Positions 268 through 57,155 of a stretch of DNA of 64,000 nucleotides are shown here, piece by piece. A program made the position numbers and the translations under genes. The first letter of the stretch is position 1. Every line of letters begins with the position of its first letter. Origin of the DNA: a virus; IMG/VR virus record IMGVR_UViG_3300026538_000054, positions 32,001 to 96,000 of that record; one strand, given 5' to 3'. A model generated the notes under the pieces. The model saw only the letters and a program-made list of their open reading frames with translations, made no database searches and had not been told where the DNA came from.

Positions 268-750
268 ATGGCCCGTGGTGCTGCTTGGTGGGACCGGTTC
301 TTCCTGGGCATGGCGCAGTACGTCTCGACGGCGTCTAAAGACCCCAGCACGAAGGCTGGCGCCGTGGTTGTGGATGACAAACGCAGGGTCGTAAGTGTCG
401 GCTACAACGGCTTCGCACGCGGCGTGGTTGACGACCCTGCACGCTACACTAATCGCGAGCTCAAGTACAAAATGATCCTGCACGCTGAGCGCAACGCGCT
501 ACTGTTTGCCGGCCGATCGCTTGAGAACTGCGTCCTCTACACCTGGCCGTTCATGACCTGCTCCGTCTGCGCGGCGATGGTCATCCAGACCGGTATCGTT
601 CGGTGTGTCGCCCCTCCCATACCTGACCATCTGCAAGCTCGCTGGGGCGAGGACATGGCCCTGGCCGCGACCATGCTCCGCGAGGCCGGCGTCAGTCTGG
701 TCGTTTATGAGGGGGAGATCAACGAGCGCAAGGACTGTTGCAGCACGTAG
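268..750 (+). CDS. dCMP deaminase (ComEB/DCD family)
   Basis: S-K-D-P-S-T-K-A-G-A, GYNG, HAERNA and P-x-x-x-C-x-x-C zinc motifs; ATG at 268 preferred over TTG at 241. Confidence 0.92.
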   Translation: MARGAAWWDRFFLGMAQYVSTASKDPSTKAGAVVVDDKRRVVSVGYNGFARGVVDDPARYTNRELKYKMILHAERNALLFAGRSLENCVLYTWPFMTCSVCAAMVIQTGIVRCVAPPIPDHLQARWGEDMALAATMLREAGVSLVVYEGEINERKDCCST

Positions 751-778
751 CCCTCTGCAGCGGGCTGAAAGCTGCGAC
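749..778 (+). repeat. Solitary CRISPR-like repeat (core), overlaps dCMP deaminase stop
   Basis: AGCCCTCTGCAGCGGGCTGAAAGCTGCGAC. Confidence 0.85.
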
Positions 779-801
779 GTCGAGGTGATGACGCCAGGAC
801 A

Positions 802-1167
802 TCACCTCCTTGGTGCTGGCGTGAGGCTGATCCGCGGCGTGCCGTAGTCGCCCTCGGCCGTCCCTCTTAGTCTGCCGTTCAGGCGGACGGACCACTTGTG
901 CTCCCAGCCATTCTCGCCGAGCTTGCTCGTCACTTTTAGGACGCCGTCCTTGAGCGACCAGCGGCCCGTATACCACGCTCCGTCGATCTCTCTGCTGCAC
1001 TCATACTTGCCGTCTGCGTGGAAGGTCACCTGGTAGTCCTGTGTGCCCCAGATGAGTACGTACTCGCCCTGCAGCCTAATAGGCTTCGTCGCGGGCACCG
1101 GTGCGCTCCATCCAGGGAACAAAGTCGAACCCGTCACGACTGTTGCCAACAAGATTGCGTTTCGCAT
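802..1167 (-). CDS. Secreted/lipocalin-like hypothetical protein
   Basis: N-terminal signal-like segment, beta-rich (VTFHADGKY...GRWSLKDGVL); flanked by two repeats. Confidence 0.6.
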   Translation of the reverse strand: MRNAILLATVVTGSTLFPGWSAPVPATKPIRLQGEYVLIWGTQDYQVTFHADGKYECSREIDGAWYTGRWSLKDGVLKVTSKLGENGWEHKWSVRLNGRLRGTAEGDYGTPRISLTPAPRR

Positions 1168-1197
1168 GGCTTCGCATTGCTCTGACAGGGAAGTGGT

Positions 1198-1234
1198 GTC
1201 GTAGCTTTTAGCCCGCTACGGAGGGCTTCGGCAC
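1198..1234 (-). repeat. Solitary CRISPR-like repeat in 5' UTR of 802..1167
   Basis: Reverse complement GTGCCGAAGCCCTCCGTAGCGGGCTAAAAGCTACGAC. Confidence 0.85.
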
Positions 1235-1280
1235 TCTCGGTATCGTAGCATGCCCGGTAGCCCTTTTTCCGGAGACCTTT

Positions 1281-2144
1281 ATGGCTGTGTTCATGGAGCT
1301 CGGCAAGCATGTTGCCGATATGGATCAGGACTGTTACGTCCGGTTGACGGCGCTTCAGAAGATCTCTGGCGACGATCGTGAGCCGCGGACGTACGCGAGG
1401 ACCGTGTCCGGCAAGGCCGCCATGAAGCGGTTGGAAGCGGAGCTGGGCCTGCGCCAGGAGGAGCTCTTCCGGATCGGCAAGGGCGGCGCCAAGTACGCCC
1501 ACCTGCGCGTTGTCGAGCTGCTCGTCAACTGGTGGGGAAAGAGCGACAAGGTCAAGCCGGGGTTCGTCTCTTACTGCAGGCAGCGAATCGCGGACCTACT
1601 GGCCGCCCGAAGCGGCGACCCTGAAGCGAAGTCCCGCGCGAGCGCCCAGACGGCGGCCTTTCAAGAGAGCCAGAAGAAGCTGCACACCTGGCACGGGATC
1701 GGCTTTCACACGGCTAGCGGTTACTTCTACGCCGACGAGATGTGCCGACCCTACGGCAGGCGGCTCGACGACTTTCTGGCTACCCAGGAGGGGCGAGCCG
1801 TTCTGGAGCAGACCTCCAAGAGGTCGAACAGGCCCGTGGCCGACCTGGTGCGGCTCGCCCCTGACGGCGTGAATCGTTTGGTCCACGGGGTGGTGGGCGT
1901 GGCGCTTGCCCACTGGCTGGACGTCGAGTTCTTCGTCTACTGCCAGGACTGGCTGATCCGGCACGGCCTCAACGTCCTGTCGCCCCGAAACGGCGCTCCG
2001 GTCTACGACGAGCTTCACGGTCGAATTGACGCCCTGGAAGAGCAGGCCTGGCAGGCGGCGCAGGAGTTTGCCAGGCTTCGTCGAGATCTGGACATTGCCG
2101 CCGCGTGTATTGAGTACTGCGACGCCAGGCTTCGGCGGTCCTGA
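1281..2144 (+). CDS. KilA-N (APSES-like) DNA-binding protein, two KilA-N-like units plus coiled coil
   Basis: DCYVRLTALQK...GGAKYAH...LVNWW and GYFYADEMC...LDDFL...VHGVVGVALAHWLDVEF patterns. Confidence 0.75.
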   Translation: MAVFMELGKHVADMDQDCYVRLTALQKISGDDREPRTYARTVSGKAAMKRLEAELGLRQEELFRIGKGGAKYAHLRVVELLVNWWGKSDKVKPGFVSYCRQRIADLLAARSGDPEAKSRASAQTAAFQESQKKLHTWHGIGFHTASGYFYADEMCRPYGRRLDDFLATQEGRAVLEQTSKRSNRPVADLVRLAPDGVNRLVHGVVGVALAHWLDVEFFVYCQDWLIRHGLNVLSPRNGAPVYDELHGRIDALEEQAWQAAQEFARLRRDLDIAAACIEYCDARLRRS

Positions 2145-2173
2145 ACGGCCCTGAGTATCTGACCTATTACCCG

Positions 2174-2224
2174 GCGGTCGGTGGTGACTGGTTGTTCCAG
2201 TCACCACCGACCGCTTTGTTTTTT
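2174..2224 (+). terminator. Intrinsic terminator
   Basis: 18-bp perfect stem GCGGTCGGTGGTGACTGG/CCAGTCACCACCGACCGC followed by a T-rich tail. Confidence 0.8.
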
Positions 2225-4385: not shown

Positions 4386-4856
4386 TTGAAAGCCGCATCG
4401 ACGGTGTCGCCGGAGTATCGAGAACTGGCCCTGGCAGCACTTGAGCGGGCGGCCGGGCCATTGACCTGGCTGGCGCTGGCGCAACTGGCGTGCGTCGCCG
4501 ACGTCTCGAGCGCCTATCTCGAGTTCGCGGCGGCCCTGAGGGAGTTGGCGGCCTCCGGCCAGGCCCTGAGACAAGGAGGCCCGGCGGGTGATCTTTTCAG
4601 ACGGGTTGATCAACCAACTCAGCTCGGCGACAAAAGACCCGGTCGGCTGGCCCGTGCCCTCACGAACCTGCGAATCAAGCATGGGCTTTCTCAGGAGCAG
4701 GCGGCCTTGCAGCTTGGCTGGCCGCCCACGCGGGTCGTCAGGCTTGAAAATTCGCCCGACGACGAACAGAAGTTGGGTGAGCTCAAGACCTACGCTCGCG
4801 CGCTAGGTAGAGACTTGTTCGTTGCCTTCGCCGTTGCTGTGGGCGAGGCGGACTAG
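4386..4856 (+). CDS. XRE-family HTH protein
   Basis: LRIKHGLSQEQAALQLGWPPTRVVRLEN; start uncertain. Confidence 0.75.
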   Translation: MKAASTVSPEYRELALAALERAAGPLTWLALAQLACVADVSSAYLEFAAALRELAASGQALRQGGPAGDLFRRVDQPTQLGDKRPGRLARALTNLRIKHGLSQEQAALQLGWPPTRVVRLENSPDDEQKLGELKTYARALGRDLFVAFAVAVGEAD

Positions 4857-4870
4857 CTCGTGTAATGCTG

Positions 4871-4898
4871 GCCCTCTGCAGCGGGCTGAATGCTGCAA
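4871..4898 (+). repeat. Solitary CRISPR-like repeat (core)
   Basis: GCCCTCTGCAGCGGGCTGAATGCTGCAA. Confidence 0.8.
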
Positions 4899-4933
4899 AA
4901 ATGCTGCAAAAAGAAATGGGCCGAGCGCCAAGC

Positions 4934-4986: not shown

Positions 4987-5030
4987 CGAGCCGCGTGCGC
5001 CTTTCCCATGCGGGTGTTATGCTGTAGGCC

Positions 5031-5181
5031 GTACCAGAGCCATACGCAGCGGGCTAAAAGCTGCGAAGGATGGCGACCTGTGTCAAAGCCCTGCGCAGCG
5101 GGCTGAATGCTGCGAGAGGATGTCCCACTCCCTGGCCACGGTGGGTGACAAAGCCCTTTGCAGCGGGCTTAAAGCTGCGAC
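5031..5181 (+). CRISPR. Mini-array, 3 degenerate repeats (5031, 5080, 5145), spacers 12 and 28 bp
   Basis: Three 37-bp copies of the repeat. Confidence 0.75.
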
Positions 5182-5223: not shown

Positions 5224-5724
5224 ATGTCCGAACACGAGTTGCTGCGCTCCATCAATCAACGCCTCGCACACATAGGCCGCTCGACGGACGCTATCGCCTC
5301 GGCTGTCTTCCTTATCGTGCGAAAGTTGCTCGATGAGGAGCAAGGTGGCCTGTCGCCCGAAGACGCCGCCAAAGTGCTCGCCCGACTGACGGCCCACGAC
5401 CAAGCTCTCGAGGACATCGTCGCCGAGCAAACCGACGAGAGCTCTTCCACGCTCGGCAAACACCACTCAGTAGCGAGAACCGCGATGGCTATTCCGCAAG
5501 CCTTGCAGGACATCTTGGCCAAGATTGACGCCGACACCAGCGCCCTGGCCGCGGTGGTCCTGGACCTGCGCAACAAGATCAGCACGGGCATGTCCCAGGA
5601 GGACGTGGTCGCCGTACAGACCACCCTGGGTCAGATCGCCGACCGTCTCGAGCAGACGGCTCACGACCCCAACGCGCCGGTGCCGCCCGGCCCTCAACCG
5701 GTCTTCGCCGGCCGCAAGCCGTAA
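5224..5724 (+). CDS. Coiled-coil hypothetical protein (possible internal start at 5485)
   Basis: ORF track, helical composition. Confidence 0.55.
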   Translation: MSEHELLRSINQRLAHIGRSTDAIASAVFLIVRKLLDEEQGGLSPEDAAKVLARLTAHDQALEDIVAEQTDESSSTLGKHHSVARTAMAIPQALQDILAKIDADTSALAAVVLDLRNKISTGMSQEDVVAVQTTLGQIADRLEQTAHDPNAPVPPGPQPVFAGRKP

Positions 5725-5911
5725 GGCGGCCAAGAGATCACGTTGTTCGGTAGGTGGTCGGAACGAGCCGAGTGCCCCTCACGGGGAGTCGGCTCGTTTC
5801 GTTTTCCCTTTTCCGGAAAACGTTTTGTCGCGTGCGTGTTAACCTGGCGACAGGCCTACTCGGCGGCCTAATAGCCGAGAAGTAGCCTAGAACGGAAAAA
5901 GAAACGAGCTA

Positions 5912-10102: not shown

Positions 10103-10142
10103 GCGGCAAGAGATATTGACATCTTTTTGGTAGGAATTAAGC
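10103..10142 (-). promoter_or_regulatory. Bipartite phage promoter-like motif CTWAA-N15-YGTCAATAT
   Basis: GCTTAA-15nt-TGTCAATATCTCTTGCCGC; 7 copies with identical spacing. Confidence 0.7.
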
Positions 10143-22601: not shown

Positions 22602-22657
22602 GAGTCACGTCCCACAGCGTCGACTAACCTGTCGCTGTGCGAGGTAAGATGGCAGCG

Positions 22658-24817: not shown

Positions 24818-24820
24818 TCG

Positions 24821-33633: not shown

Positions 33634-33667
33634 CTGACCTACCACGAGTTACCATGTTCGGCTGTAC

Positions 33668-41381: not shown

Positions 41382-41440
41382 CTGCTGCGTGTTGACGCTG
41401 TCTGGCAGTCTTTTCTTTTTCCGGAAAACATATTCAAGCG

Positions 41441-41509
41441 GCCAATAGCTAAAAGAAAACGGCGGGATGGCGCTTGCGCGCCACCTCCCGACCGTCTTCA
41501 TCCTGCGCT
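41441..41509 (-). repeat. 69-bp terminator-containing direct repeat (second copy 42061-42129)
   Basis: Two mismatches between copies. Confidence 0.85.
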
Positions 41510-41870: not shown

Positions 41871-41965
41871 ATCGGCGCGGGCACGCGAAAGTTCGCATGG
41901 CTACCCGCTCCTCACTACATATTGACGCAATTTATGTCATAATTAAGTTCTTATGCGCGGCGGCA
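41871..41965 (-). repeat. 95-bp promoter-containing direct repeat (second copy 43057-43151)
   Basis: Contains ACTTAA-15nt-CGTCAATAT. Confidence 0.85.
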
Positions 41966-42133
41966 GCCGTCGACTTGGAGTCGCCGACCAGAACAGACTG
42001 ACGCTACCTGACAGGCGTTCCTTTCTAGACTACTGGGCGGCGCAGTGCCGGAACCGAGAAGCCAATAGCTAAAAGAAAACGGCGGGATGGCGCTTGCGCG
42101 CCACTTCCCGACCGTCTTCGTCCTGCGCTGTCT

Positions 42134-42170
42134 GGCGCAGCATTCAGCCCGCTGCGCAGGGCTGCTTCAC
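42134..42170 (-). repeat. Solitary CRISPR-like repeat overlapping stop of 42167..42637
   Basis: Reverse complement GTGAAGCAGCCCTGCGCAGCGGGCTGAATGCTGCGCC. Confidence 0.8.
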
Positions 42171-42637
42171 TCGACGCGGCCCCACCGCCTGATAGCGGCG
42201 CCCCAGCGAGACGTGGAGCCGCAACAGGACGTGGGCGGATCATCCACCAGTCTAGGGCCTACCGTCGGCCCAACGCCTTGGGCATAGACAGATATCCATT
42301 TCTGCTTCATGAACAACTCGGCCTCCGGTCCCTGGTCGTTGACCTGGGACCGGCGATCCACGATCTCAGGCCGGCGAGTCGGGCCTTCGTCCGCTTCCTG
42401 CTCCGAGTGAGCCTCGGCGTCGAGCACGCTGATCCTGGACTGCACACGGTCGTTGTGCAGGCAACTCGCCGCCTTCAGAGCCGCCAGCCGGACGAACTCC
42501 TCGCGCTGAGCCCGACACTTGGCCTTGTCGAGCTGGTCGCAGAGGCCCTCGAACACGCCGATGACGATCAACGCCAGCGCGGCGATGACCAACAGAGAGC
42601 CGATGATCTCCACGAAGATGGCGGATTTCTTGTTCAT
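42167..42637 (-). CDS. Membrane-anchored hypothetical protein
   Basis: N-terminal TM, GGAG RBS. Confidence 0.55.
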   Translation of the reverse strand: MNKKSAIFVEIIGSLLVIAALALIVIGVFEGLCDQLDKAKCRAQREEFVRLAALKAASCLHNDRVQSRISVLDAEAHSEQEADEGPTRRPEIVDRRSQVNDQGPEAELFMKQKWISVYAQGVGPTVGPRLVDDPPTSCCGSTSRWGAAIRRWGRVE

Positions 42638-43036: not shown

Positions 43037-43128
43037 GACAAGGCTCCGTCAACGAGATCGGCGCGGGCACGCGAAAGTTCGCATGGCTACCCGCGCCTCA
43101 CTAAATATTGACGCAATTTATGGCCTAA

Positions 43129-43374
43129 TTAAGTTCTTATGCGCGGCGGCACAAGAGAGGCCACGTCCTTGTTGGTGAGCACCACGGTCCGGTCCAGGCC
43201 CAGCGACTCCAGGTGCCTCTCGAAGTCCGGCTCGCCGGCGGAGATGAACCGTACGTGCTCCTGGCTCACCTGGAAGAAGACGGCCAGCGGGCGGCCCTGA
43301 TTATCCTTGATCACGAGCCGGGTGGCGTTTATCCGGACCGGCGACTCCATCCTGTTGTGCGATTCCAGGATCAT
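43129..43374 (-). CDS. Hypothetical protein
   Basis: Coupled to 43379..44104. Confidence 0.55.
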   Translation of the reverse strand: MILESHNRMESPVRINATRLVIKDNQGRPLAVFFQVSQEHVRFISAGEPDFERHLESLGLDRTVVLTNKDVASLVPPRIRT

Positions 43375-43378: not shown

Positions 43379-44104
43379 TCACCACCCTTCCACGGGCTGT
43401 TCGCCCACGGCCGCTTCTCTCTCCTTGAGTCGCTTCTGGAACCGCCAGGCGGCCACGCGGGCGTGTTCGACCGTGGACAGTTCGGCCCTGGGCAGGCCCC
43501 TGCCGTGCGAGGCTTGCTTGCCGCCTGCCTGCGGGAAGGCGCTTTGCATCGGCTCCATGGGCTGGATGGTGCTTTGCGGCGGCTGTCCACCCGCCTGCCC
43601 CTGTTCTTGTCCTCCCTGGACCACCGAGCCACCGTCGGCCGCTTGCGCCGGCATGCCGGTGACAGGGTCGCGGTTCGGGCCGTCCAGGATGTCGGGCGGC
43701 GGCTCCTTGCCTCTGGAGCGCATGTCGTGCATGACCAGCTTCTTGAGCTGAAACATGTCCGTGGCCATGGCGGCAGGGTCCGGTTTGTTGGTCTTGGGCT
43801 GTCCCTTGCCCGCTCCCACCCCTGACTGAGCCAGGGCGTTGTTCACGGCCGTCTGCACGGTCGTGGCCAGGTCGCCCCCTCCTTCCGTCGGAGTGGGCGC
43901 AGGGATGGGAGGGGCCGTAGGCGGCGGCATGGCCCCGCCACCGCCAGCAGGGCCTTGAGCCGGTGGCGGCGGGGACATCGCACCACCCTCCGACGCGGGT
44001 GGCCCGCCGCCACCAGCGGCGGCAGCGGCCGCGTCGGAGGGGACGGCAGCCTTTTTCGCGATGGCGGCCCGAGCGTAGAAGAGAGCGGCCTTGTCCAGGG
44101 GCAT
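43379..44104 (-). CDS. Pro/Gly-rich protein with KxA motifs
   Basis: AGGAG RBS; DKAA, KKAA, KQAS. Confidence 0.6.
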   Translation of the reverse strand: MPLDKAALFYARAAIAKKAAVPSDAAAAAAGGGGPPASEGGAMSPPPPAQGPAGGGGAMPPPTAPPIPAPTPTEGGGDLATTVQTAVNNALAQSGVGAGKGQPKTNKPDPAAMATDMFQLKKLVMHDMRSRGKEPPPDILDGPNRDPVTGMPAQAADGGSVVQGGQEQGQAGGQPPQSTIQPMEPMQSAFPQAGGKQASHGRGLPRAELSTVEHARVAAWRFQKRLKEREAAVGEQPVEGW

Positions 44105-44167
44105 AGCGGTTGTCTCCTGTTCTTGAAGCCATCAAAAATACCGCGTGGACTGCACCTGCGTCCGCCT

Positions 44168-44207
44168 GCTTAATAGGTCTCCATTCCGTGTCAATATTTC
44201 TTGCCAC
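44168..44207 (+). promoter_or_regulatory. Bipartite phage promoter-like motif
   Basis: GCTTAA-15nt-TGTCAATATTTCTTGCC. Confidence 0.7.
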
Positions 44208-44269: not shown

Positions 44270-44306
44270 TTTGCAGCAATAAGCCCGCTGCAGAGGGCTT
44301 TGGTAC
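44270..44306 (-). repeat. Solitary CRISPR-like repeat
   Basis: Reverse complement GTACCAAAGCCCTCTGCAGCGGGCTTATTGCTGCAAA. Confidence 0.8.
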
Positions 44307-44354
44307 GTCGGTCATCTTAGCAGGTACGGTGAAACGGTCGCTCGAGAGGCCTTC

Positions 44355-44563
44355 ACCTGCGACCACTGCAACTGGGACGAGGTCCAGGCCTGGCAGGGCG
44401 GGCTGATCAGACAACTGGCCAGGCTGGCCTACGAAGGCCGTCAACCGGTTGACGGCGCTCTTGACCCGGCTGCGAGGAGCAAGCCATCCTTGAGTACCTT
44501 CGCAGCGCAGGCCCCCACGTCAGGGGCTGCTGGGCCCTTGACCTCGTTCTCGGTAAGGACTGA
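44355..44563 (+). pseudogene. C-terminal remnant of Gemmata-type family gene
   Basis: LIRQLARLAYEG...GALDP / GCEEQAILEYLRSAGPHVRGCWALDLVLGKD in shifted frames. Confidence 0.7.
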
Positions 44564-44568: not shown

Positions 44569-45471
44569 ATGACTTTGAGACAATGGCTTGATGGCCAGGC
44601 CCTGTGGTCGATGTTCACGACGGCCGAGATCAGTGAGCGAAAACAGCGACTTCTGGTCTGTGTGCTGGCCCAAAAAGCGCTGCGAAAATATAAGGCTAAT
44701 GCGAGCAGAAAGGCCATCGAGACGTCTCTGCGTTACGCCGACGGCCTGGCTGACTCGGCAGAACTGTACCGAGCCTTTGTCGAGGCCAGGTCCCTTTGCA
44801 ACTCGACTTCGCTGCCGCTGTCTAGCTGCAAACTGCTCGCTATGCGCATAGCGGGCTGCTGCGCCAGCTTGTCCCTGACCCACTTTTTCAGTGACAACTG
44901 GTTGCCGGCTCAGGGCGACGTGGGCTGGGAGGCCCTGCGATGTGCCATGCGCGAGGTTGTCGAGGCGCCTTTCGCCCTGAGGCGACTGTGCATCTTCAAG
45001 CCGTCCAGGAGGCGCGCCGACAGGTTCCTGGCCTCGCTGGTGGAGAGGAATGAAACGACCCAGACGGCAGAGAAGCGCAAGAAAGGCGTGGCATCTTCCA
45101 CCCTGGTGGAAGAGAGGTGGAAGAAGGTCGACTGGCTCTCCAGGGCCGCGCTTGACATCGCCAGGTTGATCTACGAAGAAGACCGCTTCGAGGACCTGCC
45201 CATCCTTGCCGACGCCCTGGAAGACGCCGGCTGTACAGAGGAGCACCTGCTCATGCACCTGAGAGGCAAGTCGCAATGCCCCGCCTGTCTGGAGAGCCGC
45301 CAGGCCCTGGCGGCCATCGAGCAAGTGGCTGCGCAGGCACGGTCGAAAGGCGTCAGGACCAGTGGCGCCGGTCAGGTCTCTTGCAGCGAGTGCAACCAGG
45401 GCTGGCGGCCTCTTCAAGGCCCGCACTTCAAGGGCTGCTGGGCCCTTGATCTCATCCTCGGAAAGGAGTGA
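44569..45471 (+). CDS. Gemmata-type expanded family protein
   Basis: ERKQRLLVC, LPILADALEDAGC, HFKGCWALDLILGKE. Confidence 0.8.
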   Translation: MTLRQWLDGQALWSMFTTAEISERKQRLLVCVLAQKALRKYKANASRKAIETSLRYADGLADSAELYRAFVEARSLCNSTSLPLSSCKLLAMRIAGCCASLSLTHFFSDNWLPAQGDVGWEALRCAMREVVEAPFALRRLCIFKPSRRRADRFLASLVERNETTQTAEKRKKGVASSTLVEERWKKVDWLSRAALDIARLIYEEDRFEDLPILADALEDAGCTEEHLLMHLRGKSQCPACLESRQALAAIEQVAAQARSKGVRTSGAGQVSCSECNQGWRPLQGPHFKGCWALDLILGKE

Positions 45472-47324: not shown

Positions 47325-47361
47325 TTCGCAGCTTTTAGCCCGCTGCGTAGGGCTTGATCAC
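47325..47361 (-). repeat. Solitary CRISPR-like repeat antisense to operon
   Basis: Reverse complement GTGATCAAGCCCTACGCAGCGGGCTAAAAGCTGCGAA. Confidence 0.8.
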
Positions 47362-48986: not shown

Positions 48987-49511
48987 ATGAACAACTGGGC
49001 CACCATCGACGACCCTTTGGACGAGGAAGAGCGCCGCGCCTTGCTAGCCGCCAAGGACCGCGGTCGTAAGCGCCTGAAGAGCGGCGTCATGGACATCCGT
49101 CCAGACCTGCACGCGGTCGCTCGCGGGGGCCTGGAGGCCGAGGTCCGCCGGCTGCAGCTCCTCGTCTTCCGTCTGCTCAGGGACAGGCCGCCCAGCCTTT
49201 CTCAGCCCGACGACGCACCCGAGCTGAAAACGCCATGCGCCCAGATGGAGCGGGCCTTGCTTGACGCCATGGCGTTTCTTTCCCGCTTGTCTGATGCCGA
49301 CGAGCTGTGCGACCGGATCATCGGTCTCCTGGAGCCGGGGGCGTGCGGTATCGACGGTTGTAAAGACCCAGCGGACCATCTGGTATGGGACCGGGTCAAG
49401 GAACAGGTAGTTCGTTGCTGCGACAGCCACTCCAACGAGATCCTCGACCAGGAAGGCCCGGAGTACTCCAGTTTCTGCCCCAACTGTGGTTGCGACATCC
49501 CTATCAACTGA
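48987..49511 (+). CDS. Cys-rich hypothetical protein
   Basis: C-terminal CPNCG. Confidence 0.55.
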   Translation: MNNWATIDDPLDEEERRALLAAKDRGRKRLKSGVMDIRPDLHAVARGGLEAEVRRLQLLVFRLLRDRPPSLSQPDDAPELKTPCAQMERALLDAMAFLSRLSDADELCDRIIGLLEPGACGIDGCKDPADHLVWDRVKEQVVRCCDSHSNEILDQEGPEYSSFCPNCGCDIPIN

Positions 49512-49594
49512 CTCCTGCTAACATCACGGGTTGTCAAGCCCGCCGCGGCGGGCCTGTTGCCGCGACCACCCGATGTGCCACGCGTGAGAACTTC

Positions 49595-52417
49595 ATGCCC
49601 CTTAACAGCACCGCCGGCCAGGCCCTCGTGAACGCCGTCCTCCCTGAGGAACTGCGCAACCACGAGCGCGCCCTGGACAAGAAGGGCATGGCCTCGCTCA
49701 TGAAGGAGGTGGCCAGGAAGCACCCTGAGCAGTACCGAGAGGTCCTCTTTCGCCTGGGGAAGCTAGGCCATCTCACCGCCTACCACACAGGGTCTCTCTC
49801 CTTTGGCCTGGAACACATGCGCACCGCGGTCAGCGCCAGAGACATGAAGAGAAAGCTGCGCCAGGAGATCGATCAGATCTATGACCACCGTTCTCTATCT
49901 CAAAAAGAGAAAGAACAGAAGATCGTTGAGCTGGTGAGCTCCTATCAAGCTCCTCTCGAGAAGGCCGTCTACGACGAGTCCCTTGCCGAGGGAAACCCTC
50001 TTGCTCTGCAAGTTCTCTCAGGGGCCAGGGGCAACAAGACCAACCTGCGCTCCCTGAGAGGCGCTGATCTTCTCTACGTAGACCACAAGGACCAGCCCGT
50101 CCCCATCCCTATCTTGCGATCCTACTCCGAGGGCCTGACCCCGGCTGACTACTATGCCGGCAGTTTCGGAGCGCGAAAGGGCGTCATTGACGTCAAGCAG
50201 GGCGTGGCTGATTCGGGCTTCGCCTCCAAGTTGCTCGTCCAGATGTCTCATCGCCTGGTGACCACCTCTCTGGATCATCCCGAGCCACCCTCTCGTATCA
50301 GGGGCCTGCCTGTTGACCTTGACGACCCTGACAACGAAGGTGCTCTCCTCGCCCATGACATAGGGCCGTTCAAGAGAAACACCGTCCTCACCCCTGACGT
50401 GCTTCACCGGCTCAAGCAAGAAGGCCACAAACACCTCCTTGTGAGATCGCCTACCGTCGGCGGCCCGCCTGACGGAGGAGTGTACGCCCGTGACGTTGGT
50501 ATCAGAGAGAAGGGCGTGATATCTCCCGTAGGAGATTTCGTCGGCATCGCCGCCGCACAGGCTCTCTGCCTAGCTGAAGGCACGTTGGTCACCCTGGCTG
50601 ATCTCACTTTCAAGCGCATCGAAGAGGTCGCTCCGGGAGACCTTATTCTGGCGGCCAACAGCAAGGGTGAGACCGCTTCGGCCAAGGTGAACAGACGTTT
50701 CCTTAACGGCCCCCGTGCGTGTTTACGTTACTTCTGGTCGAATCAGGAGCATTCTGTTCTTGCCACGAGCGAACACAAAGTGCTCAGGCCTGACAAGACC
50801 GTCAGGCCCTTCGACCAGACCTCCGTGGTCTTGCTTCATACGCCTCAAGGGCCTACTCCAGCCGCCCTGGATGAGCCTCTTCATCAAGAGCCAATCATCC
50901 TGCCCACCTATGACCTGGAGATCGACCACCCCGAGCATCTCTACGTGCTCAAGGGCGGCTTGATCGTGGCCAACTCTGAGCCTCTTACCCAGAGCACGCT
51001 GGGCAGCAAGCACTCGGGGGGCGTAGCTGGGGCCAAGAAATCAGGGCCTACGGGCTTCAAATTGCTCTCTTGCTTGGGAGAAGGCACGTTGGTGCGCATG
51101 GCCGACGTGCCTTCCAAGGAGATTGAGAAGATCAAGCCGGGTGACAGGGTCATCGGTGCGAACTTGGAGGGGGGATGGTTCCCCGTCCAGGTCAAGAACG
51201 TCTTTGACAACGGCCAGCGCCCTTGTCGCACGTTCACCTTTGAGTCGATGCTTGGTGAGGAGAGCCTCACTGCCACGGACGACCATCTCGTACTGGCTCA
51301 GGCGCCCTGCTACAAGATCGACAAGACCCTGGCTGACAAGGGCCTGAAACGGTTTGATGAGTGGGAAGGCGGCCTCAAGGTCTCGCTGGGAGAGATACGC
51401 ACGGCGCATAACTTGCCTCACCCGTTGGCGCCTGTGGGCTACAGGCCTGTGAAGGCCGCCAAGGAGCCTGGTTCTCCAGGCGTTCGTGTCGAGCTCCTCT
51501 ACGCCACCCCTGAGGTGCTTCTCCCTACCTACGACCTGGAGGTGGATCACCCTGACCACCTCTTCGTCCTGGCCAACGGCCTGGTGGTGAGCAACTCGCA
51601 GATTCAGGTTCCCAAGGCCTTCCCATCTGGAGCTTCTCACTCTCAAGAAGATGGCCGCGTGCAAGCCGTCTTCCCTGCGCCCCAGGGCGGTAACTACGTG
51701 CAGGTCAACGGCCACAAGCACTACGTGGCCCCTGGCTTCGACGTCCTGGTCAAGCCAGGCGATGAGGTTGAATCTGGCGATGTTCTCAGCGAGGGAGTAC
51801 CGAACCCTGCGGAAGTGGTGGCTCACAAGGGCGTTGGAGAAGGCAGGGCCTACTTCGTCCAGGCGTTCAGAGACTCGTTCAAGCGCTCAGGCCTGCAGGC
51901 GCATCGCCGGAACATCGAGCTGGTCGCCAGGGGCCTGATTGACCATGTCAGGCTTACCGAGGAGCATGGGCACTACTCCCCGGATGACGTAGTGCAGTAC
52001 TCCCGTCTGGAGAGGGACTGGCAGCCAAGAGACGGTGCCAAGGAAAAGGCCCCCAACGAGGCCATGGGGCACTACCTGGAAGCGCCGGTGCTGCACTACT
52101 CCATCGGGACGAAGATCAGGCCCAGCGTGGTGAAGCGCCTGTCTCAGTTCGGCGTCAAGAGCGTGTTGGTGCATCAGCAACCACCGCCTTTTGAGCCTGA
52201 AATGGTCAGGGGGATGGAGAACCTGACCCATGACCCCGACTGGATGACGAGATTTCTGGGGCCTTATGTGAAAAAGAACTTCCTGAAGGGCGTTGCCAGG
52301 GGTGACATCTCCGACGAGGCCGGAAGCAGCTACGTCCCTTCTCTGGCCAGGGGAGCGGACTTCAACCGTCTGCCGCCTGTCAAGGGCTTTGACCCCAGGT
52401 CTCTGGGCCAGCTCTAA
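49595..52417 (+). CDS. Phage RNA polymerase beta' C-terminal subunit (two mini-inteins)
   Basis: SGARGN, SYSEGLT...GARKG (bridge helix), VGIAAAQAL|SEPLTQ...KHSGG (trigger loop), HRRNIELVAR. Confidence 0.93.
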   Translation: MPLNSTAGQALVNAVLPEELRNHERALDKKGMASLMKEVARKHPEQYREVLFRLGKLGHLTAYHTGSLSFGLEHMRTAVSARDMKRKLRQEIDQIYDHRSLSQKEKEQKIVELVSSYQAPLEKAVYDESLAEGNPLALQVLSGARGNKTNLRSLRGADLLYVDHKDQPVPIPILRSYSEGLTPADYYAGSFGARKGVIDVKQGVADSGFASKLLVQMSHRLVTTSLDHPEPPSRIRGLPVDLDDPDNEGALLAHDIGPFKRNTVLTPDVLHRLKQEGHKHLLVRSPTVGGPPDGGVYARDVGIREKGVISPVGDFVGIAAAQALCLAEGTLVTLADLTFKRIEEVAPGDLILAANSKGETASAKVNRRFLNGPRACLRYFWSNQEHSVLATSEHKVLRPDKTVRPFDQTSVVLLHTPQGPTPAALDEPLHQEPIILPTYDLEIDHPEHLYVLKGGLIVANSEPLTQSTLGSKHSGGVAGAKKSGPTGFKLLSCLGEGTLVRMADVPSKEIEKIKPGDRVIGANLEGGWFPVQVKNVFDNGQRPCRTFTFESMLGEESLTATDDHLVLAQAPCYKIDKTLADKGLKRFDEWEGGLKVSLGEIRTAHNLPHPLAPVGYRPVKAAKEPGSPGVRVELLYATPEVLLPTYDLEVDHPDHLFVLANGLVVSNSQIQVPKAFPSGASHSQEDGRVQAVFPAPQGGNYVQVNGHKHYVAPGFDVLVKPGDEVESGDVLSEGVPNPAEVVAHKGVGEGRAYFVQAFRDSFKRSGLQAHRRNIELVARGLIDHVRLTEEHGHYSPDDVVQYSRLERDWQPRDGAKEKAPNEAMGHYLEAPVLHYSIGTKIRPSVVKRLSQFGVKSVLVHQQPPPFEPEMVRGMENLTHDPDWMTRFLGPYVKKNFLKGVARGDISDEAGSSYVPSLARGADFNRLPPVKGFDPRSLGQL
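50567..50974 (+). mobile_element. Mini-intein 1 (136 aa)
   Basis: CLAEGTLV...TSEHK...TYDLEID...LIVAN|S. Confidence 0.9.
51071..51595 (+). mobile_element. Mini-intein 2 (175 aa)
   Basis: CLGEGTLV...TDDHL...TYDLEVD...LVVSN|S. Confidence 0.9.
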
Positions 52418-52446
52418 GCCCTGCGCAGCGGGCTAAATGCTGCGAC
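52416..52446 (+). repeat. Solitary CRISPR-like repeat overlapping beta' stop codon
   Basis: T-AAGCCCTGCGCAGCGGGCTAAATGCTGCGAC. Confidence 0.85.
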
Positions 52447-52503: not shown

Positions 52504-52860
52504 ATGGATGGCTTTGGCCTGGTTCTCGGGCATCTGCTGGGCGACTACATTTTTCAAAACGACTGGATGGCCGCCAACAAGACCTCCCGTTCGTTCCCGT
52601 GCGCCGTTCACTGCACGGCGTACACGCTGGCCGTATGGCTCTGCTCCTTCTGGTGGCTACCTATCTGGGCGCTTGCGGTCATCTGGCTAGCCCACTTCCC
52701 GCTCGACCGCTGGCGGCTGGCAAAGCTCTGGATGGAACGAGTTTCCGGGCAGACCAAGTTCGCTTCGGCACCAGGTCTGGCTCCCTGGTCCGTCATCGTG
52801 GTGGACAACACCATGCACCTGACCGTGCTGTTCTTGCTGGGCGTGTTCGTCCAGGGGTGA
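52504..52860 (+). CDS. DUF3307 membrane protein
   Basis: GHLLGDYIFQNDWMA...H...HFPLD...DNTMH. Confidence 0.85.
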   Translation: MDGFGLVLGHLLGDYIFQNDWMAANKTSRSFPCAVHCTAYTLAVWLCSFWWLPIWALAVIWLAHFPLDRWRLAKLWMERVSGQTKFASAPGLAPWSVIVVDNTMHLTVLFLLGVFVQG

Positions 52861-52868
52861 TTCGTCTG

Positions 52869-52898
52869 AGCCCTGCGCGGCGGGCTAAATGCCGCGAC
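52869..52898 (+). repeat. Solitary CRISPR-like repeat
   Basis: AGCCCTGCGCGGCGGGCTAAATGCCGCGAC. Confidence 0.85.
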
Positions 52899-53013
52899 TA
52901 GCCGAGCTGCCGCCCTGTACCAGGCCTCCGCAGCGGCCTTATTGCTGCGGCAGGATGTTGTGCAGGCAGTCGATGTGTCACGTCTCGCTCATCTTTCGCA
53001 CAAGGACACGACC

Positions 53014-53427
53014 ATGGACGATTTCCAGCAGTAACTCCGTCTGCAGGAGCAGCACTACCGACTGCTCCTGAACGGTGAGGAGCCCAGCACCGGGCCGGTT
53101 GAGGACCTCGAGGACCGGATGGATGCGTTGTGGGACAAGTTCACCGAGGAACAACGGAAGGCGGTCATGGCCCTGGATGGTAACGAGGGCCTTCCCGAGG
53201 TCATCCAGCAAGCGATCAACGCCTACAAGGCCTTGTACGACGCTGGCGGTGGTAGGGGCAACGACACGCCGAGGCCCAAGGTGCAGCAGGACTTCAGCCC
53301 TGCTCAGCTCGGCGATCTTGCCGAGCTGAGTTTGGCCTTTGACGACGCCCGCTGGGGCCTGGAGATGGCCCTTCTCGACAGGAGGCTCGCCAGCCTCAGT
53401 CTCAGCGACAGGAGCGAGGCCCAATGA
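53014..53427 (+). pseudogene. Hypothetical gene with early in-frame TAA (53032)
   Basis: ATG 53014 with AAGGA RBS is in frame with 53119..53427. Confidence 0.45.
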
Positions 53428-53792
53428 AAGAGATAGAAGACCTGATCTTCGACTGGATCGACACCGACCTGGCCTACCAGGCAGCCAGGTCGCGTGGTTA
53501 CACGAGAAGCCGGGACGACAAGAACTACGTGGCAATGCATCAGGCCCGCGCAGTTTGGGGGCGCGCCTGGCGTGCTCTTGCAATTCTTACGAAACCGCTC
53601 TACCCGAAGAGCCCTTTGGAGGAGTTGTTTGCGGACTACCAGGCCTTCAGGGAGCGCCACGGCTGCCAGATTGACCCGAAGGACATACCCGCCCCTTTCA
53701 GCCAGGAGCTGGCCGAGCTCAGGGAGCGCTGCAGCGTGGCGCTCCTAGCGCTTCGCGGGGCGTACCACAAGCAGTTCGACGAGAAGCGCTGA
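53424..53792 (+). CDS. Hypothetical protein, tandem paralogue A
   Basis: MKEIEDLIFD. Confidence 0.7.
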   Translation: MKEIEDLIFDWIDTDLAYQAARSRGYTRSRDDKNYVAMHQARAVWGRAWRALAILTKPLYPKSPLEELFADYQAFRERHGCQIDPKDIPAPFSQELAELRERCSVALLALRGAYHKQFDEKR

Positions 53793-53837
53793 AGACGCCC
53801 GTGGCGTACTCGAGGCTGCGTGCAGGAGCGAGGCCCA

Positions 53838-54263
53838 ATGAAAGAGATAGAAGACCTGATCTTCGACTGTATCGACAACGAACTGGCCTCCCAGGTAGCC
53901 GTGGCGCGTGGCTGTATGAGAGCCCCGGACGACAAGAACTACACAGTACGCGAGGCCTACGCGCGCGCACGCCAGGCTTACGAGCGCTCACGGCGAGTGC
54001 TTGTAAATCTCATGAAGACGGCTGCGCCGAAGCTCGCGATACAAGAGTTGTTCGATGACTACGCGGCCTTCAAGGAGCGCCACGGCCCACTGGGTGACCC
54101 GAAGGACATACCAACCCTTTTCAGCCAGGAGCTTGCTAATCTCAGGTGCCACCACGCCGTGGCGCATCTGGCGCTTCAAGAGGCGTACGCCAGACAGTTC
54201 GACGAGACAGCTAGCGCCAGGTGCGCGACCAGTAGTGGACCAGGTAGCTCTCCGGATGGATGA
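53838..54263 (+). CDS. Hypothetical protein, tandem paralogue B
   Basis: MKEIEDLIFD; shares 46-bp identical 5' DNA with A. Confidence 0.7.
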   Translation: MKEIEDLIFDCIDNELASQVAVARGCMRAPDDKNYTVREAYARARQAYERSRRVLVNLMKTAAPKLAIQELFDDYAAFKERHGPLGDPKDIPTLFSQELANLRCHHAVAHLALQEAYARQFDETASARCATSSGPGSSPDG

Positions 54264-55241: not shown

Positions 55242-55551
55242 AAAGCAGAAGAAACTGGCGGCCTCTTTTCCCTACGCCGTTCCACAATGCTTCGTCCGGT
55301 TCCTCGACAACAACCACGAAGGCATCGCGGTCTACACCAAACGTGGCGGCGCGGTCAGCTTCACGCGCCATCTCGGCACGCCCATGAACGCTAAGCTCTG
55401 GGAGGACCTGGTGGAGCGGCTGGGCTGCCTGGGGCTGCGTATCTACGGCCCGGGCTTCGACGGTGCGTGGACCATGGGCTTTTTCGGGCCGGGCGCGTTC
55501 ATATACCTGGACGAGAACTTCCTCGTCCGGGACATCGAGTTTCAACCGTGA
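55231..55551 (+). CDS. Hypothetical protein
   Basis: AGGAG RBS. Confidence 0.55.
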   Translation: MATEKQKKLAASFPYAVPQCFVRFLDNNHEGIAVYTKRGGAVSFTRHLGTPMNAKLWEDLVERLGCLGLRIYGPGFDGAWTMGFFGPGAFIYLDENFLVRDIEFQP

Positions 55552-55571
55552 GGTGAGCCATACAAGACGAG

Positions 55572-56060
55572 GTGCTTCAGAAGGCCCTTGAGACCATCAG
55601 GGCCGTCGGCGTCAATCTGCCCGACCCTGCTCCCGGTCTCTGTACCGCCGTCGTGCGACCCTACTACCTGACGGCCGACCAGAACTGGCTCTGCATCGCG
55701 ACCCAGATACACGGGCAGGTCGTCTTCGTGCTCAATTTGTTTTCCGGAAAAGCACACGAGAATGAGCAATGCGTGGCCGATTGGCGGCCTGGTGATGCCC
55801 TGGATGACCAACTGCTTGAGCGATTGCGGCTCTTCGTCCGCGTTGACCATGAGGCCCTTCTCGCCCAGGCCAGGGCCCTGCTTCAGGGCTGGGTGGACAA
55901 ACAAGCCCATGACCGCTGCTGGTACTACCCTGATGTCTTCCGTGAGTTGGCTGCCTTGCTAGGCGTGAAGACGACCGTCCCTGGAGGCTTGCCGCCCAGG
56001 CCTGAGTTCGAGGACGGCTGCAGGAGATACCAGGACGAGGAGTACAACCGCACGGTTTGA
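55572..56060 (+). CDS. Hypothetical protein
   Basis: HDRCW...F...C motif. Confidence 0.55.
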   Translation: MLQKALETIRAVGVNLPDPAPGLCTAVVRPYYLTADQNWLCIATQIHGQVVFVLNLFSGKAHENEQCVADWRPGDALDDQLLERLRLFVRVDHEALLAQARALLQGWVDKQAHDRCWYYPDVFRELAALLGVKTTVPGGLPPRPEFEDGCRRYQDEEYNRTV

Positions 56061-56351
56061 CAGCTCACCTGTTTACCATTACGCTGGAGAGCTCCAGCGT
56101 AATGGTAAGGTTCTCAGCAAGGCCTTCTCGGCGGCCTCGATGCCGTGAAATGCCGTCGGCGCTGCGCTAAATGCCGCAACTCGACCTTGCACACTCGCTC
56201 GCGGGCCAGTAGCATGATGGTGCTCGGAGTGCGTGTTGAGCAGGACAGAGGAAGAAGCCTAGTAGTGTAAGCCGTTCCCCGCGCGGACAGAGCGCCGCCA
56301 ATAGTGGGCCGCGTCGAACAGCTACCCGACGACCTGACCGACGAGCAGAAC

Positions 56352-56592
56352 GAGCAAAAGCCCTGTGCAGCGGGCTGGATGCTGCAACTCTAGCAGTTGG
56401 GGCCAGGACAGGCCTTGCTACACGTACTGAAGCCCTATACAGCGGGCTGATAGCTGTAGCACGGCGAGCGCGTCGACGCCGAGTGGTCAACGCACTGAAG
56501 CCCTCTGCGGCGGGCTGAATGCTGCAACTGGAAGTAGTTGTTCGACAAGGTGGTCGCACCGAAGCCCTCTATAGTGGGCTGAAAGCTGCAGC
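56352..56592 (+). CRISPR. Degenerate array, 4 repeats (56352, 56424, 56492, 56556), spacers 35, 31 and 27 bp
   Basis: Four 37-bp copies; half repeat at 56166-56180. Confidence 0.85.
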
Positions 56593-56626
56593 AGGAGACC
56601 GAGAGCTTGGCGGCCCGGCCCATACC

Positions 56627-56881
56627 ATGTCTACACGCACCATCACCGTCCACGATCGATGTACAAAATGCAACCGCACGCTCCACTTCATATCCGAAGG
56701 CGAGCGAGGCGTGTGCGGTCCTTGCTGGGTGGCCTCTCTCGCGCCCGAGACCAAGAAGGCCATAAATCGCGTGATCGCCAGCGCCTTCAACGGCAGCGGC
56801 GAAGAAGAGAAGAGCCAGGCCGTTGATGGGGCCATGAAGGCCCTCCAGCAAGAAGACAAGAAGCCCTCTGCAGCGGGCTGA
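56627..56881 (+). CDS. Small Zn-finger protein embedded between array repeats
   Basis: CTKCNRTL...SE-x-ERGVCGPC; TGA stop lies inside the next repeat. Confidence 0.65.
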   Translation: MSTRTITVHDRCTKCNRTLHFISEGERGVCGPCWVASLAPETKKAINRVIASAFNGSGEEEKSQAVDGAMKALQQEDKKPSAAG

Positions 56882-56949
56882 AAGCTGCAACTGGAAATAC
56901 TCAAGCATGGGAGTGCCAAAGCCCTCTGTAGCGGGCTAAAAGCTGCGAC
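56861..56949 (+). CRISPR. Mini-array: repeat, 21-bp spacer, repeat
   Basis: Repeats 56861-56891 and 56913-56949. Confidence 0.8.
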
Positions 56950-56963
56950 TGGCGACCGGAGCG

Positions 56964-57155
56964 ATGACGCGCATGTCCGTCGAGGACGACAAGTTCTGGA
57001 ACGAGGTAGTAGGCGATCTCCGCAAGAAGCGAGGCTTTGGCCCGCTCACGCCAGAAGAGGCCCAGGCGGCCTATGACGCCGCGCCGGAAGAGCCTCTCTC
57101 CGAGGACAGGATCAAGGAGATCGTCAAATACGCCGTTTCAGGCGGCCAGGGCTAA
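56964..57155 (+). CDS. Hypothetical protein
   Basis: Short ORF followed by terminator. Confidence 0.55.
   Translation: MTRMSVEDDKFWNEVVGDLRKKRGFGPLTPEEAQAAYDAAPEEPLSEDRIKEIVKYAVSGGQG

Follow-up and report, generated by a model that had tools for sequence, protein, structure and literature searches.

What is the short repeat that recurs between the genes of this viral DNA, and what does it do there? The initial annotation of the 64-kb window (the whole stretch of DNA analysed here) had noted that such repeats overlap stop codons and lie in leader regions. It proposed that a repeat-specific RNase or binding protein cuts polycistronic mRNA at them or controls translation, or else that they are recombination points for the exchange of gene cassettes. 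The window is part of a circular jumbo-phage contig of 199,022 bp, which encodes, 3.7 kb upstream of the window, a type V-M effector (Cas12m, 628 aa) and a CRISPR array of 18 repeats. The array repeat (GTGACAAAGCCCTGTGCAGCGGGCTCAAAGCTGCGAC, n = 18) lies directly 3' of cas12m, and the repeats dispersed over the genome are copies of it, either solitary or in mini-arrays (41–60 bits against a covariance model built from the dispersed copies and the array repeat). The protein postulated by the annotation has therefore gained a candidate, Cas12m, encoded beside an array of the same repeat, whose binding and cutting of the dispersed copies we infer.

Members of the Cas12m family tested so far bind DNA without cutting it. 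The phage effector is assigned to this family on full-length similarity and the RuvC triad: it matched the Cas12m of PDB entry 23vw_A (E = 2.8e-52, residues 43–614) and entry 23vu_A (E = 4.5e-14), and the RuvC residues D353, E516 and D602 are invariant in an alignment of five homologues. The Pfam profile Cas12f1-like_TNB gave a weak match (20.6 bits for a cut-off of 26.3 bits). The main array is regular, with a repeat spacing of 71–76 nt and spacers of 34–39 nt. The V-M systems of MmCas12m2, GoCas12m and MsCas12m have the same 36–37-nt repeat with a stem, a stacked 6-bp pseudoknot and a ..GAC end (PMC10442227, PMC11013384), and the same effector gene directly upstream of an array that needs no tracrRNA. 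In the phage, however, most repeats lie outside the array, between genes of protein-coding units, and some have their own promoter. A comparable locus was reported in the myxophage MV-1, with a Cas12m of ~610 aa by an array and neither adaptation genes nor identifiable protospacers; that report covers the locus only and does not mention dispersed repeats or self-targeting spacers (bioRxiv 10.64898/2026.09.14.751636).

The 37-nt unit contains a scaffold made of a 5-bp stem (columns 8–12 with 21–25) and a 6-bp pseudoknot stem (columns 15–20 with 30–35), and ends in ..GAC or ..AAC. Across 39 copies 97.7% of the paired cells are complementary, against 20–43% when the partners are slid. Double, compensatory changes occur at four pairs of the pseudoknot stem (18 cells), and 21 G-U cells pair on the sense strand only, since the opposite strand has an A-C mismatch. 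This covariation and these strand-specific wobble pairs show that selection acts on the fold of the sense-strand RNA. The fold agrees with the published description of the MmCas12m2 crRNA, with a pseudoknot stem of 6 bp, a stem stacked with it and 7 disordered nt at the 5' end (PMC10442227); in the phage unit, too, ~7 nt at the 5' end are left unpaired, ahead of a stem and a 6-bp pseudoknot stem. Cas12m proteins bind pseudoknotted repeats of this type, and the pre-crRNA is cut within the repeat (PMC10442227, PMC11013384), a cleavage carried out by Cas12m orthologues (PMC11013384). Against a similar binding of the dispersed repeats, many solitary copies deviate from the array repeat at the two guide-adjacent positions, which MmCas12m2 reads base-specifically.

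The motif GCCC-N8-GGGCT-N4-GCNGC was found 51 times on the phage contig and never in the remaining 5.2 Mb of the assembly (106 other contigs), and a covariance-model census gave 57 matches on the phage contig (E < 1e-5). In the window there were 37 matches with up to two mismatches, compared with 10.2 ± 3.3 in shuffled sequences. The dispersed copies do not form regular arrays: they are single or come in sets of 2–4, with spacers of 12–36 nt and protein-coding genes between the sets. Several are mini-arrays with 1–3 spacers, and four mini-arrays have spacers of the canonical 34–36 nt. Dispersed cores are almost always intergenic (35 out of 37), even though 89.6% of the genome is coding (P about 1e-34), and of the 97 gaps that are 40 nt or longer, 24 contain a copy. 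The orientation follows transcription, in support of the annotation's proposal: in the gaps of co-directional genes 25 copies are sense and five antisense (p = 3e-4).

The placement of the repeats relative to stop codons was confirmed by column position in all four cases where the annotation had seen a stop within a sense repeat. The stop of the dCMP deaminase gene (TAG, 748–750; Pfam dCMP_cyt_deam_1 in 241–750) occupies columns 7–9 of the repeat at 742–778 (+), that of the RNAP beta' gene (TAA, 52415–52417) columns 6–8 of the repeat at 52410–52446 (+), and that of the gene at 42167–42637 (−) columns 2–4 (TGA) of the repeat at 42134–42170 (−); these three repeats are solitary. The fourth lies in a set of two repeats (56855–56949, +): the first (56855–56891) overlaps the last eight codons and the stop of a Zn-ribbon ORF (56627–56881), and the TGA of this 84-aa CxxC...CxxC ORF (56879–56881) sits in the repeat's loop. 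Other solitary copies follow a stop closely, such as 4863–4899 (+), 6 nt past the stop of the gene at 4386–4856, and 52862–52898 (+), 1 nt past that of a DUF3307 gene (52504–52860) and followed by a degenerate copy at 52915–52951.

Repeats also end 14–57 nt before the eight start codons that the annotation had listed, all of whose coordinates were correct on re-check. The stop-overlapping copy of the RNAP beta' gene ends 57 nt before the start at 52504, and the second repeat of the 56855–56949 set 14 nt before the ATG at 56964. A solitary repeat at 27252–27288 (+), immediately 3' of a hairpin and T run that resemble a terminator, ends 28 nt before the start at 27317. The one at 33662–33698 (+), internal to a gap of 87 nt that separates two core genes of the same direction, ends 22 nt before the start at 33721. 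A diverged mini-array of four repeats (56352–56592, +; repeats at 56352, 56424, 56492 and 56556; spacers of 35, 31 and 27 nt) precedes the ATG at 56627 by 34 nt. Two genes are bracketed as described earlier, the one at 802–1167 (−) by inverted copies and the DUF3307 gene by direct ones. A further solitary repeat (25069–25105, +) lies in the convergent gap between an excisionase-like gene and an integrase gene.

Eleven of 38 copies, namely ten dispersed ones and the first repeat of the array, are preceded at a distance of exactly 7 nt by a TAnnnT -10 box (position -13; P about 4e-21), with a TGn extension in ten of the 11. This fixed-distance rule is new here. It predicts an RNA that begins with the repeat rather than one cut at it, and the RNAs of promoter-led copies should start with the Cas12m handle. 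The remaining three listed starts are preceded by such copies. Upstream of the gene at 802–1167 (−), a TGnTAnnnT box (hexamer 1247–1242) and a solitary repeat (1234–1198) 7 nt away form a unit at 1198–1250 (−) that ends 30 nt before the start at 1167. A mini-array at 5015–5181 (+), with TGnTATGCT at 5015–5023, repeats at 5031–5067, 5080–5116 and 5145–5181 and then a half repeat, ends 42 nt before the gene at 5224–5724. A pair at 22642–22767 (+; TAAGAT at 22645–22650, repeats 22658–22694 and 22731–22767, 36-nt spacer) ends 39 nt before the start at 22807. Another pair (29192–29315, +; TGnTACGAT, hexamer 29195–29200, repeats 29208–29244 and 29279–29315, 34-nt spacer) lies upstream of the gene at 29394–29993, and a single boxed repeat (44270–44322, −; TGnTAAGAT, hexamer 44319–44314, 7 nt, repeat 44306–44270) upstream of the gene at 43379–44104 (−). 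The pair at 24821–24946 (−; TGnTAATCT, hexamer 24943–24938, repeats 24930–24894 and 24857–24821, 36-nt spacer) is located downstream of the integrase gene and directed into the excisionase-like gene (24395–24817, +). Five of the ten promoter-led dispersed copies are directed away from any gene. Four of the five antisense copies carry the fixed-distance box, the one at 47325–47361 (−) being the only copy antisense to its neighbours that does not.

The dispersed repeats co-occur with Cas12m among the relatives of the phage. The only relative lacking Cas12m (G001), whose synteny with the phage is eroded, had no copy in the covariance-model census. A second relative (G002; RNAP beta' 47–58% identical, Cas12m about 30% identical) has an unrelated repeat of its own, of which 11 copies are dispersed; all are intergenic, with a fully paired stem 2 and the same layout. 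Its -10 hexamers lie at -13 in five of the 11 copies and at -11 and -9 in two more; that of its array leader is also at -13. On a third contig with Cas12m (L090), the leader of cas12m itself is made of three repeats. Dispersal is not general to Cas12m phages, because a search at up to three mismatches gave no dispersed copy in three other viral contigs with Cas12m.

These results suggest that the messenger RNAs of the phage are themselves acted on by its CRISPR protein. The most likely reading, which we consider fairly probable, is that Cas12m binds and processes the phage's own RNAs. Copies would be transcribed in sense to give the crRNA scaffold of Cas12m, in two arrangements. In one, the -10 box 7 nt upstream would start the RNA with the handle; in the other, a sense copy would lie inside a transcription unit, often against the upstream stop and 12–57 nt before the next start. 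Cas12m would bind the handles, cut just 5' of the internal ones as it would in pre-crRNA, splitting the polycistronic RNA there, and hold the next ~17–20 nt, a stretch that for several copies covers the ribosome-binding region. Control by Cas12m may thus extend to about 24 intergenic regions, roughly a quarter of the gaps; the direction of its effect on expression is, like binding and cleavage, what we infer. Structured intercistronic sites at which an endoribonuclease separates polycistronic RNA are familiar from the Cas6/Csy4 sites of synthetic operons and the RNase III sites between phage T7 genes, and the internal copies would work alike. However, the former are engineered and the latter serve a host RNase, whereas the phage has a natural CRISPR repeat with Cas12m and a putative cleavage. 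The punctuation of polycistronic mRNA proposed by the annotation fits only the copies in short co-directional gaps, and not the ten copies with their own -10 box; the five of these that face no gene, and the mini-arrays with 34–36-nt spacers, resemble guide genes more. A cut at a stop-overlapping copy could also strip the stop and harm the upstream gene.

The copies might instead be distributed guide genes, giving extra crRNA-like guides with which Cas12m silences DNA in trans (of rival phages, the host or the phage itself), their position next to genes being secondary. We regard this as unlikely, although the promoters of the ten boxed copies, the averted direction of five and the four canonical mini-arrays speak for it, as do two self-matching spacers of the main array. 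Spacer 1 matches the phage at 38/38 positions (5632–5672, −, within the gene at 5224–5724), with a TTG flank (5670–5672 on the protospacer strand) that resembles the TTN PAM of MmCas12m2, and the first 17 nt of spacer 15 match an intergenic divergent region. Self-regulation by Cas12m is plausible because of these two spacers, the only clear self-targets in a search of phage and host with the guides. Regulators resembling crRNAs have been described in viruses (bioRxiv 10.1101/2024.10.29.618823), and this class (CreA/CreR, tracr-L, crlRNA, Cracr), which reprograms Cas effectors for transcriptional control, has the same degenerate off-array repeats and mini-arrays (10.1101/2023.03.03.530964, 10.1101/2024.10.29.618823); the repeats in the cas12m leader of the phage and of L090 fit such autoregulation. 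Yet known guides are short and partly match a cas or toxin promoter, while a search with the 17 nt after each copy found none for the phage copies, which are mostly embedded in mRNAs of unrelated genes. That search gave 93 matches in the phage (up to three mismatches) and 11 in the 5.2-Mb host assembly (up to one), where shuffled guides gave 48 and 2; ~21 of the 93 came from one repeat-like guide, and none stood out as a target, although shorter seed matches may exist. The spacers of the four mini-arrays had no exact 20-mer match in IMG/VR, and the main array had only low-complexity matches in phage and plasmid collections. Guides acting in trans would moreover need no seat 12–28 nt before start codons in operons.

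RNA anti-CRISPRs (Racrs) are likewise single CRISPR repeats in viruses, expected to give a Cas-bound RNA, but they mimic host repeats and occur once or a few times per genome (PMC10651486). We rejected this identity for the phage copies: there are ~40 of them, lone or paired, it is the array of the phage itself that they match, the sole Cas12m is phage-borne, and neither a second Cas12m nor any Cas1 was found in the 5.39-Mb assembly (100% complete by markers). A broader idea, that the copies are a sponge titrating Cas12m, either that of the phage itself, which would make them a timer, or that of a host or competitor, which would make them an RNA anti-CRISPR, seems to us quite improbable. It would be suited by the precedent of viral solitary repeats that act as RNA anti-CRISPRs (PMC10651486), by the number of handles expected to be expressed (~40, against 18 array repeats) and by clustering, since 60 kb with mostly accessory genes hold 26 of the 37 dispersed copies; but the assembly offers no host system to decoy, the copies match the phage's own repeat, and a decoy needs no tight placement before starts. 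Least probable of all are DNA-level elements, be they the annotation's recombination points or selfish array remnants: the copies around the accessory DUF3307 gene are suggestive (85% identity across 48 nt, flanks included), G001 lacks homologues of many bracketed genes, and stop codons in two frames of the unit could make in-repeat stops a by-product of insertion. But the orientation rule and the promoters at a fixed distance speak for expression, the compensatory changes and strand-specific wobble pairs show selection on a sense-strand RNA, and some copies (e.g., 33662–33698) separate core genes that are neighbours in G001 as well.

We also put forward, tentatively, the idea that a lineage of ~200-kb phages may have domesticated the DNA-binding Cas12m to regulate its gene expression at large. 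Were it true, the self-targeting array spacers would be programmable repressors, and the ~40 handles, placed in the leaders of mRNAs, between cistrons and in antisense units with a promoter, would make up a post-transcriptional regulon read by Cas12m, whose handles follow each phage's own evolving repeat sequence.

The repeats dispersed through the window are copies of the CRISPR repeat of the phage's own Cas12m (type V-M) system. The main array of this system, with 18 repeats spaced 71-76 nt (GTGACAAAGCCCTGTGCAGCGGGCTCAAAGCTGCGAC, weight-matrix scan), starts outside the window, 3.7 kb upstream of its first position. Immediately upstream of the array is a 628-aa ORF similar to two Cas12m proteins of solved structure, 23vw (E=2.8e-52, residues 43-614) and 23vu; its RuvC residues D353, E516 and D602 are invariant across five homologues. 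Cas12m orthologues, including those with the D-E-D residues, bind PAM-flanked DNA without cutting it, and process their pre-crRNA by a cut inside the repeat that requires Mg but not RuvC (PMC11013384). In the crRNA scaffold of MmCas12m2, a stem is coaxially stacked on a 6-bp pseudoknot stem, the 7-nt 5' end is disordered, and the last repeat nucleotides are read base-specifically (PMC10442227). The dispersed copies share exactly this layout: positions (columns) 8-12 of the 37-nt unit pair with 21-25, and 15-20 with 30-35. Conservation is loose in columns 1-7, and the last three bases are GAC, AAC or AAA.

We located the copies by pattern search, weight matrix and covariance model. The pattern search found 51 motifs on the phage contig (C51) and none elsewhere in 5.2 Mb. 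The whole phage carries about 37-41 dispersed copies in addition to the array; 26 strong copies and a few degenerate ones are in the window.

The window corresponds to positions 70146-134145 (minus strand) of contig C51 in assembly G000, from which it differs by a single base (window position 6798, 1 per 64,000). The first 100 bp of C51 (199,122 bp) recur as its last 100 bp, so the genome is circular or circularly permuted and 199,022 bp long. Its GC content is 63.4%, versus ~65-66% for most other large contigs. The remaining contigs form a bacterial genome (100% complete), and an RpoB look-up gives a weak hint that this host is a proteobacterium (Pseudomonadota). C51 is a jumbo tailed phage, as indicated by a Baseplate_J protein, multisubunit RNA polymerase genes and two relatives in IMG/VR (G001 and G002); a search for Terminase_6C on C51 found none. 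The phage also encodes a ribonucleotide reductase, a dCMP deaminase and KilA-N domains. Its RNA polymerase is split into a beta' gene with a Hint intein (49385-52417, intein at residues about 558-643) and a beta-like ORF of 1834 aa (35877-41381), whose residues 778-893 match a thymidylate-synthase PHROG and are possibly another insertion. At 24395-26249, an excisionase-like HTH gene (HTH_17, phrog_66) converges on a gene for a tyrosine integrase (phrog_1, E=5.8e-48), with three repeats in the gap between them; this pair indicates that the phage is probably temperate or episomal. Six genes are closed by a shared conserved 77-nt 3' end (..GCTGGGCCCTGGA..GGAAAGGAGTGA; 31262-31338, 31916-31992, 44487-44563, 45395-45471, 60814-60890 and 61718-61794) and are a paralogous family with a shared C-terminal motif. 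A tandem duplication of about 414-423 nt (53409-54207, segments 88% and 71% identical) spans two small adjacent genes. Outside the window, a LAGLIDADG_2 endonuclease ORF (L010:8030-9169, G143999-145138) adjoins a gene strongly conserved in G001.

Our own codon model called 231 genes, covering 89.6% of the genome. With these calls, 35 of 37 repeat cores are intergenic, and 24 of the 97 gaps of at least 40 nt hold a copy. The initial annotation had described repeats that overlap stop codons, sense repeats ending 14-57 nt upstream of start codons, and two single genes bracketed by repeats; all stood when we rechecked the coordinates. It had also tied the repeats to transcription, and their orientation is indeed non-random in this respect: co-directional gaps hold 25 sense and 5 antisense copies (p=3e-4) or, counted per gap, 15 sense versus 4 antisense, with one mixed (p=0.019).

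Ten dispersed copies have a putative promoter of their own. The signal emerged solely from aligning the 60 nt upstream of each copy; a scan for the standard sigma-70 consensus at 44-58 kb gave no sites. Of 38 copies, 11 have a TAnnnT hexamer exactly at -13 relative to column 1 (hexamer, 7 nt, repeat), ten of them with a TGn extension, whereas every other offset has at most one such hexamer (P about 4e-21 from the genome-wide hexamer frequency). The first repeat of the main array is among the 11; the pre-crRNA is thus predicted to start at the repeat, and transcription likewise at ten dispersed sites. The promoter-led copies in the window are at 1234-1198(-), 5031, 22658, 24930-24894(-), 29208 and 44306-44270(-). 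Most promoter-led copies are the first of a tandem set, and mini-array spacers measure 36, 36, 34 and 35 nt at 22658, 24930, 29208 and 56352, and are shorter elsewhere. Four of the five antisense copies are promoter-led, the sole exception being 47325-47361(-). Copies lacking a -10 box sit in narrow gaps: for eight or nine of them, the preceding stop codon overlaps the repeat or lies no more than 6 nt from it, and the next start follows 12-57 nt on (12-28 nt in several cases). One placement rule, promoter-led in any orientation or else sense within a transcription unit, fits 36 of the 37 copies. The copies are therefore placed to be transcribed.

Other sequences also recur. A second dispersed family consists of GCGGCAAGAGATATTGACA and, about 17 nt further on, TAGCT or TAAGC (10103-10142(+), 26534-26574(-), 30020-30060(-) and 44167-44207(-)); it looks like strong -35/-10 promoters distinct from the repeat-linked -10 boxes. 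The member at 44167-44207 falls between a promoter-led repeat and gene 43379-44104, which would thus have two promoters. A palindrome, CTTTTCCGGAAAAG, recurs intergenically (244-267, 5803-5826, 24953-24976, 41411-41434 and about G179010, the last outside the window) and could act as an operator or a bidirectional terminator. Its copy at 24953-24976 stands where the -35 element of repeat 24930-24894(-), a promoter-led copy, would be, and the one at G179010 immediately precedes a repeat. Small genes on the minus strand are flanked by two near-identical duplications, of 76 nt (41441-41516 and 42061-42136, 93% identical) and 95 nt (41871-41965 and 43057-43151, 96% identical). The shorter unit holds a GC-rich hairpin and comes right after repeat 42134-42170.

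We compared the phage with other viruses in IMG/VR. G001 (193,694 bp, direct terminal repeats, CheckV 100%), whose beta' is 58% identical, has no Cas12m and no dispersed copies; it is the only Cas12m-free relative compared. It shares 75 of the 231 genes at 22-61% protein identity, too distant for mapping breakpoints that would reveal gain or loss of cassettes at repeats. A Cas12m 86% identical to ours, on a 2.5-kb Logan contig, shows that closer relatives exist. G002 (201,946 bp; beta' 47-58% identical, open frame of 2254 aa) encodes a Cas12m about 30% identical and an 11-repeat array of an unrelated repeat, ATCGTAATACCTGCTCATCGGTTTAGAAGATGAGAC, of which it carries 11 dispersed copies. All 11 are intergenic with stem 2 fully paired, compensatory variants included. 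Seven are antisense, five of which have TATACT, TACACT, TATAAT or TACAAT at -13 (the other two at -11 and -9), and the hexamer is likewise at -13 in the array leader. Of the four sense copies, one is in a convergent gap and the others stop 11-16 nt short of a start codon. Dispersed copies thus co-occur with Cas12m, and in this phage lineage dispersal goes with Cas12m, each phage using its own repeat. Not all Cas12m viruses show such dispersal: G003 (which has no beta' match), G004 and G005 encode Cas12m and have no dispersed copies at up to 3 mismatches. These Cas12m relatives were retrieved from IMG/VR with an alignment query; a single-protein query returned none. The Cas12m-encoding viral contig L098 (IMG/VR UViG_3300047585_000208) carries eight dispersed copies of a palindrome, TTGAGTAATGCATTACTCAA, which has no relation to a CRISPR repeat, several of them shortly upstream of an ATG. 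The exact repeat pattern of our phage matched no IMG/VR locus, 38 metagenome loci and 28 GTDB loci, every one a single match. All but L064 fell below the threshold of the 37-nt weight matrix (L064 scored 25.9, versus 32-59 for the dispersed copies used), and we regard these loci as chance matches.

The main effect of the copies is probably mRNA processing and translational control. By analogy with the biochemistry of the family, Cas12m would bind handles in phage RNAs and may cut 5' of internal copies. At several copies lacking a -10 box, those with the next start close by, a Cas12m holding about 17-20 nt past the handle would cover the ribosome-binding region.

Two spacers of the main array match the phage itself. 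Spacer 1 matches window 5632-5669(-) at 38/38 positions with a TTG flank; the site is within gene 5224-5724, itself preceded by a mini-array of three repeats. The phage could tolerate such a perfect self-match only with a Cas12m that leaves DNA uncut, as expected of the family, and the match suggests that the phage employs Cas12m to repress its own genes. Spacer 15 matches an intergenic site between divergent genes outside the window (G134983-135018, C51 about 198150-198185), with 2 mismatches, both past nucleotide 17, and an ATC rather than TTN flank.

The dispersed copies might instead serve mainly to produce extra guides. Searches for trans targets of these copies gave nothing convincing: the sequences following each copy had no match in phage or host that stood out as a target against a shuffled control, and mini-array spacers had zero exact 20-mer matches in IMG/VR. 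The main array matched phage and plasmid collections only through the low-complexity spacer 9. We consider guide production unlikely as the main effect.

Solitary viral repeats can act as RNA anti-CRISPRs (PMC10651486), and the copies could titrate Cas12m. We searched the host assembly for Cas12m and Cas1 and found neither, so a decoy of host Cas12m was rejected for this host. Titration is a distinctly improbable main effect.

A DNA-level function such as recombination is the least credible main effect, since the repeat is maintained as a folded sense-strand RNA pseudoknot. In 39 copies aligned without gaps, standard pairs occur in 97.7% of cells versus 20-43% with partners slid by 1-3 columns. 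Stem 1 is almost invariant. In four of the six pseudoknot pairs both partners have changed (18 cells), a result reached by none of 500 shuffles. G-U pairs fill 21 cells, where the opposite strand would have A-C mismatches.

Control of mRNAs through handles may extend to cas12m itself. In the region of this gene and its leader (L011:9311-11640, outside the window), a degenerate sense repeat precedes the gene by 125 nt and another repeat-like sequence, GGCCTGCGCGGCGGCGCGGTAGCCGCGGC, by about 35 nt; farther up is a promoter-led copy in antisense orientation. In an unrelated Cas12m contig (L090), a three-repeat mini-array is the leader of cas12m. The repeats in both leaders suggest that cas12m is autoregulated via its own handle.

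Known CRISPR repeats outside arrays are single decoys, or one or two regulators next to cas genes; repeat-like regulators have been described beside cas genes and in phages hijacking host Cas proteins (10.1101/2023.03.03.530964, 10.1101/2024.10.29.618823). Here, in contrast, one virus carries dozens of repeats within its own transcription units, with the RNA fold under selection; it also encodes a Cas12m, whose family is not known to cleave DNA, and carries spacers matching its own genome. A preprint reports a phage Cas12m locus with no mention of dispersed repeats (10.64898/2026.09.14.751636), and our literature search found no paper on a phage that has dozens of repeats within its own transcription units. 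The fixed promoter-to-repeat spacing gives exact, cheap predictions for mapping 5' ends. If the proposed role is true, the phage would offer ready-made parts (a compact handle, a promoter starting transcription at the handle and a small effector) of possible use in multiplexed RNA processing or CRISPRi circuits. If Cas12m reads the handles, it would be a natural CRISPR effector controlling the processing, stability or translation of mRNAs genome-wide.
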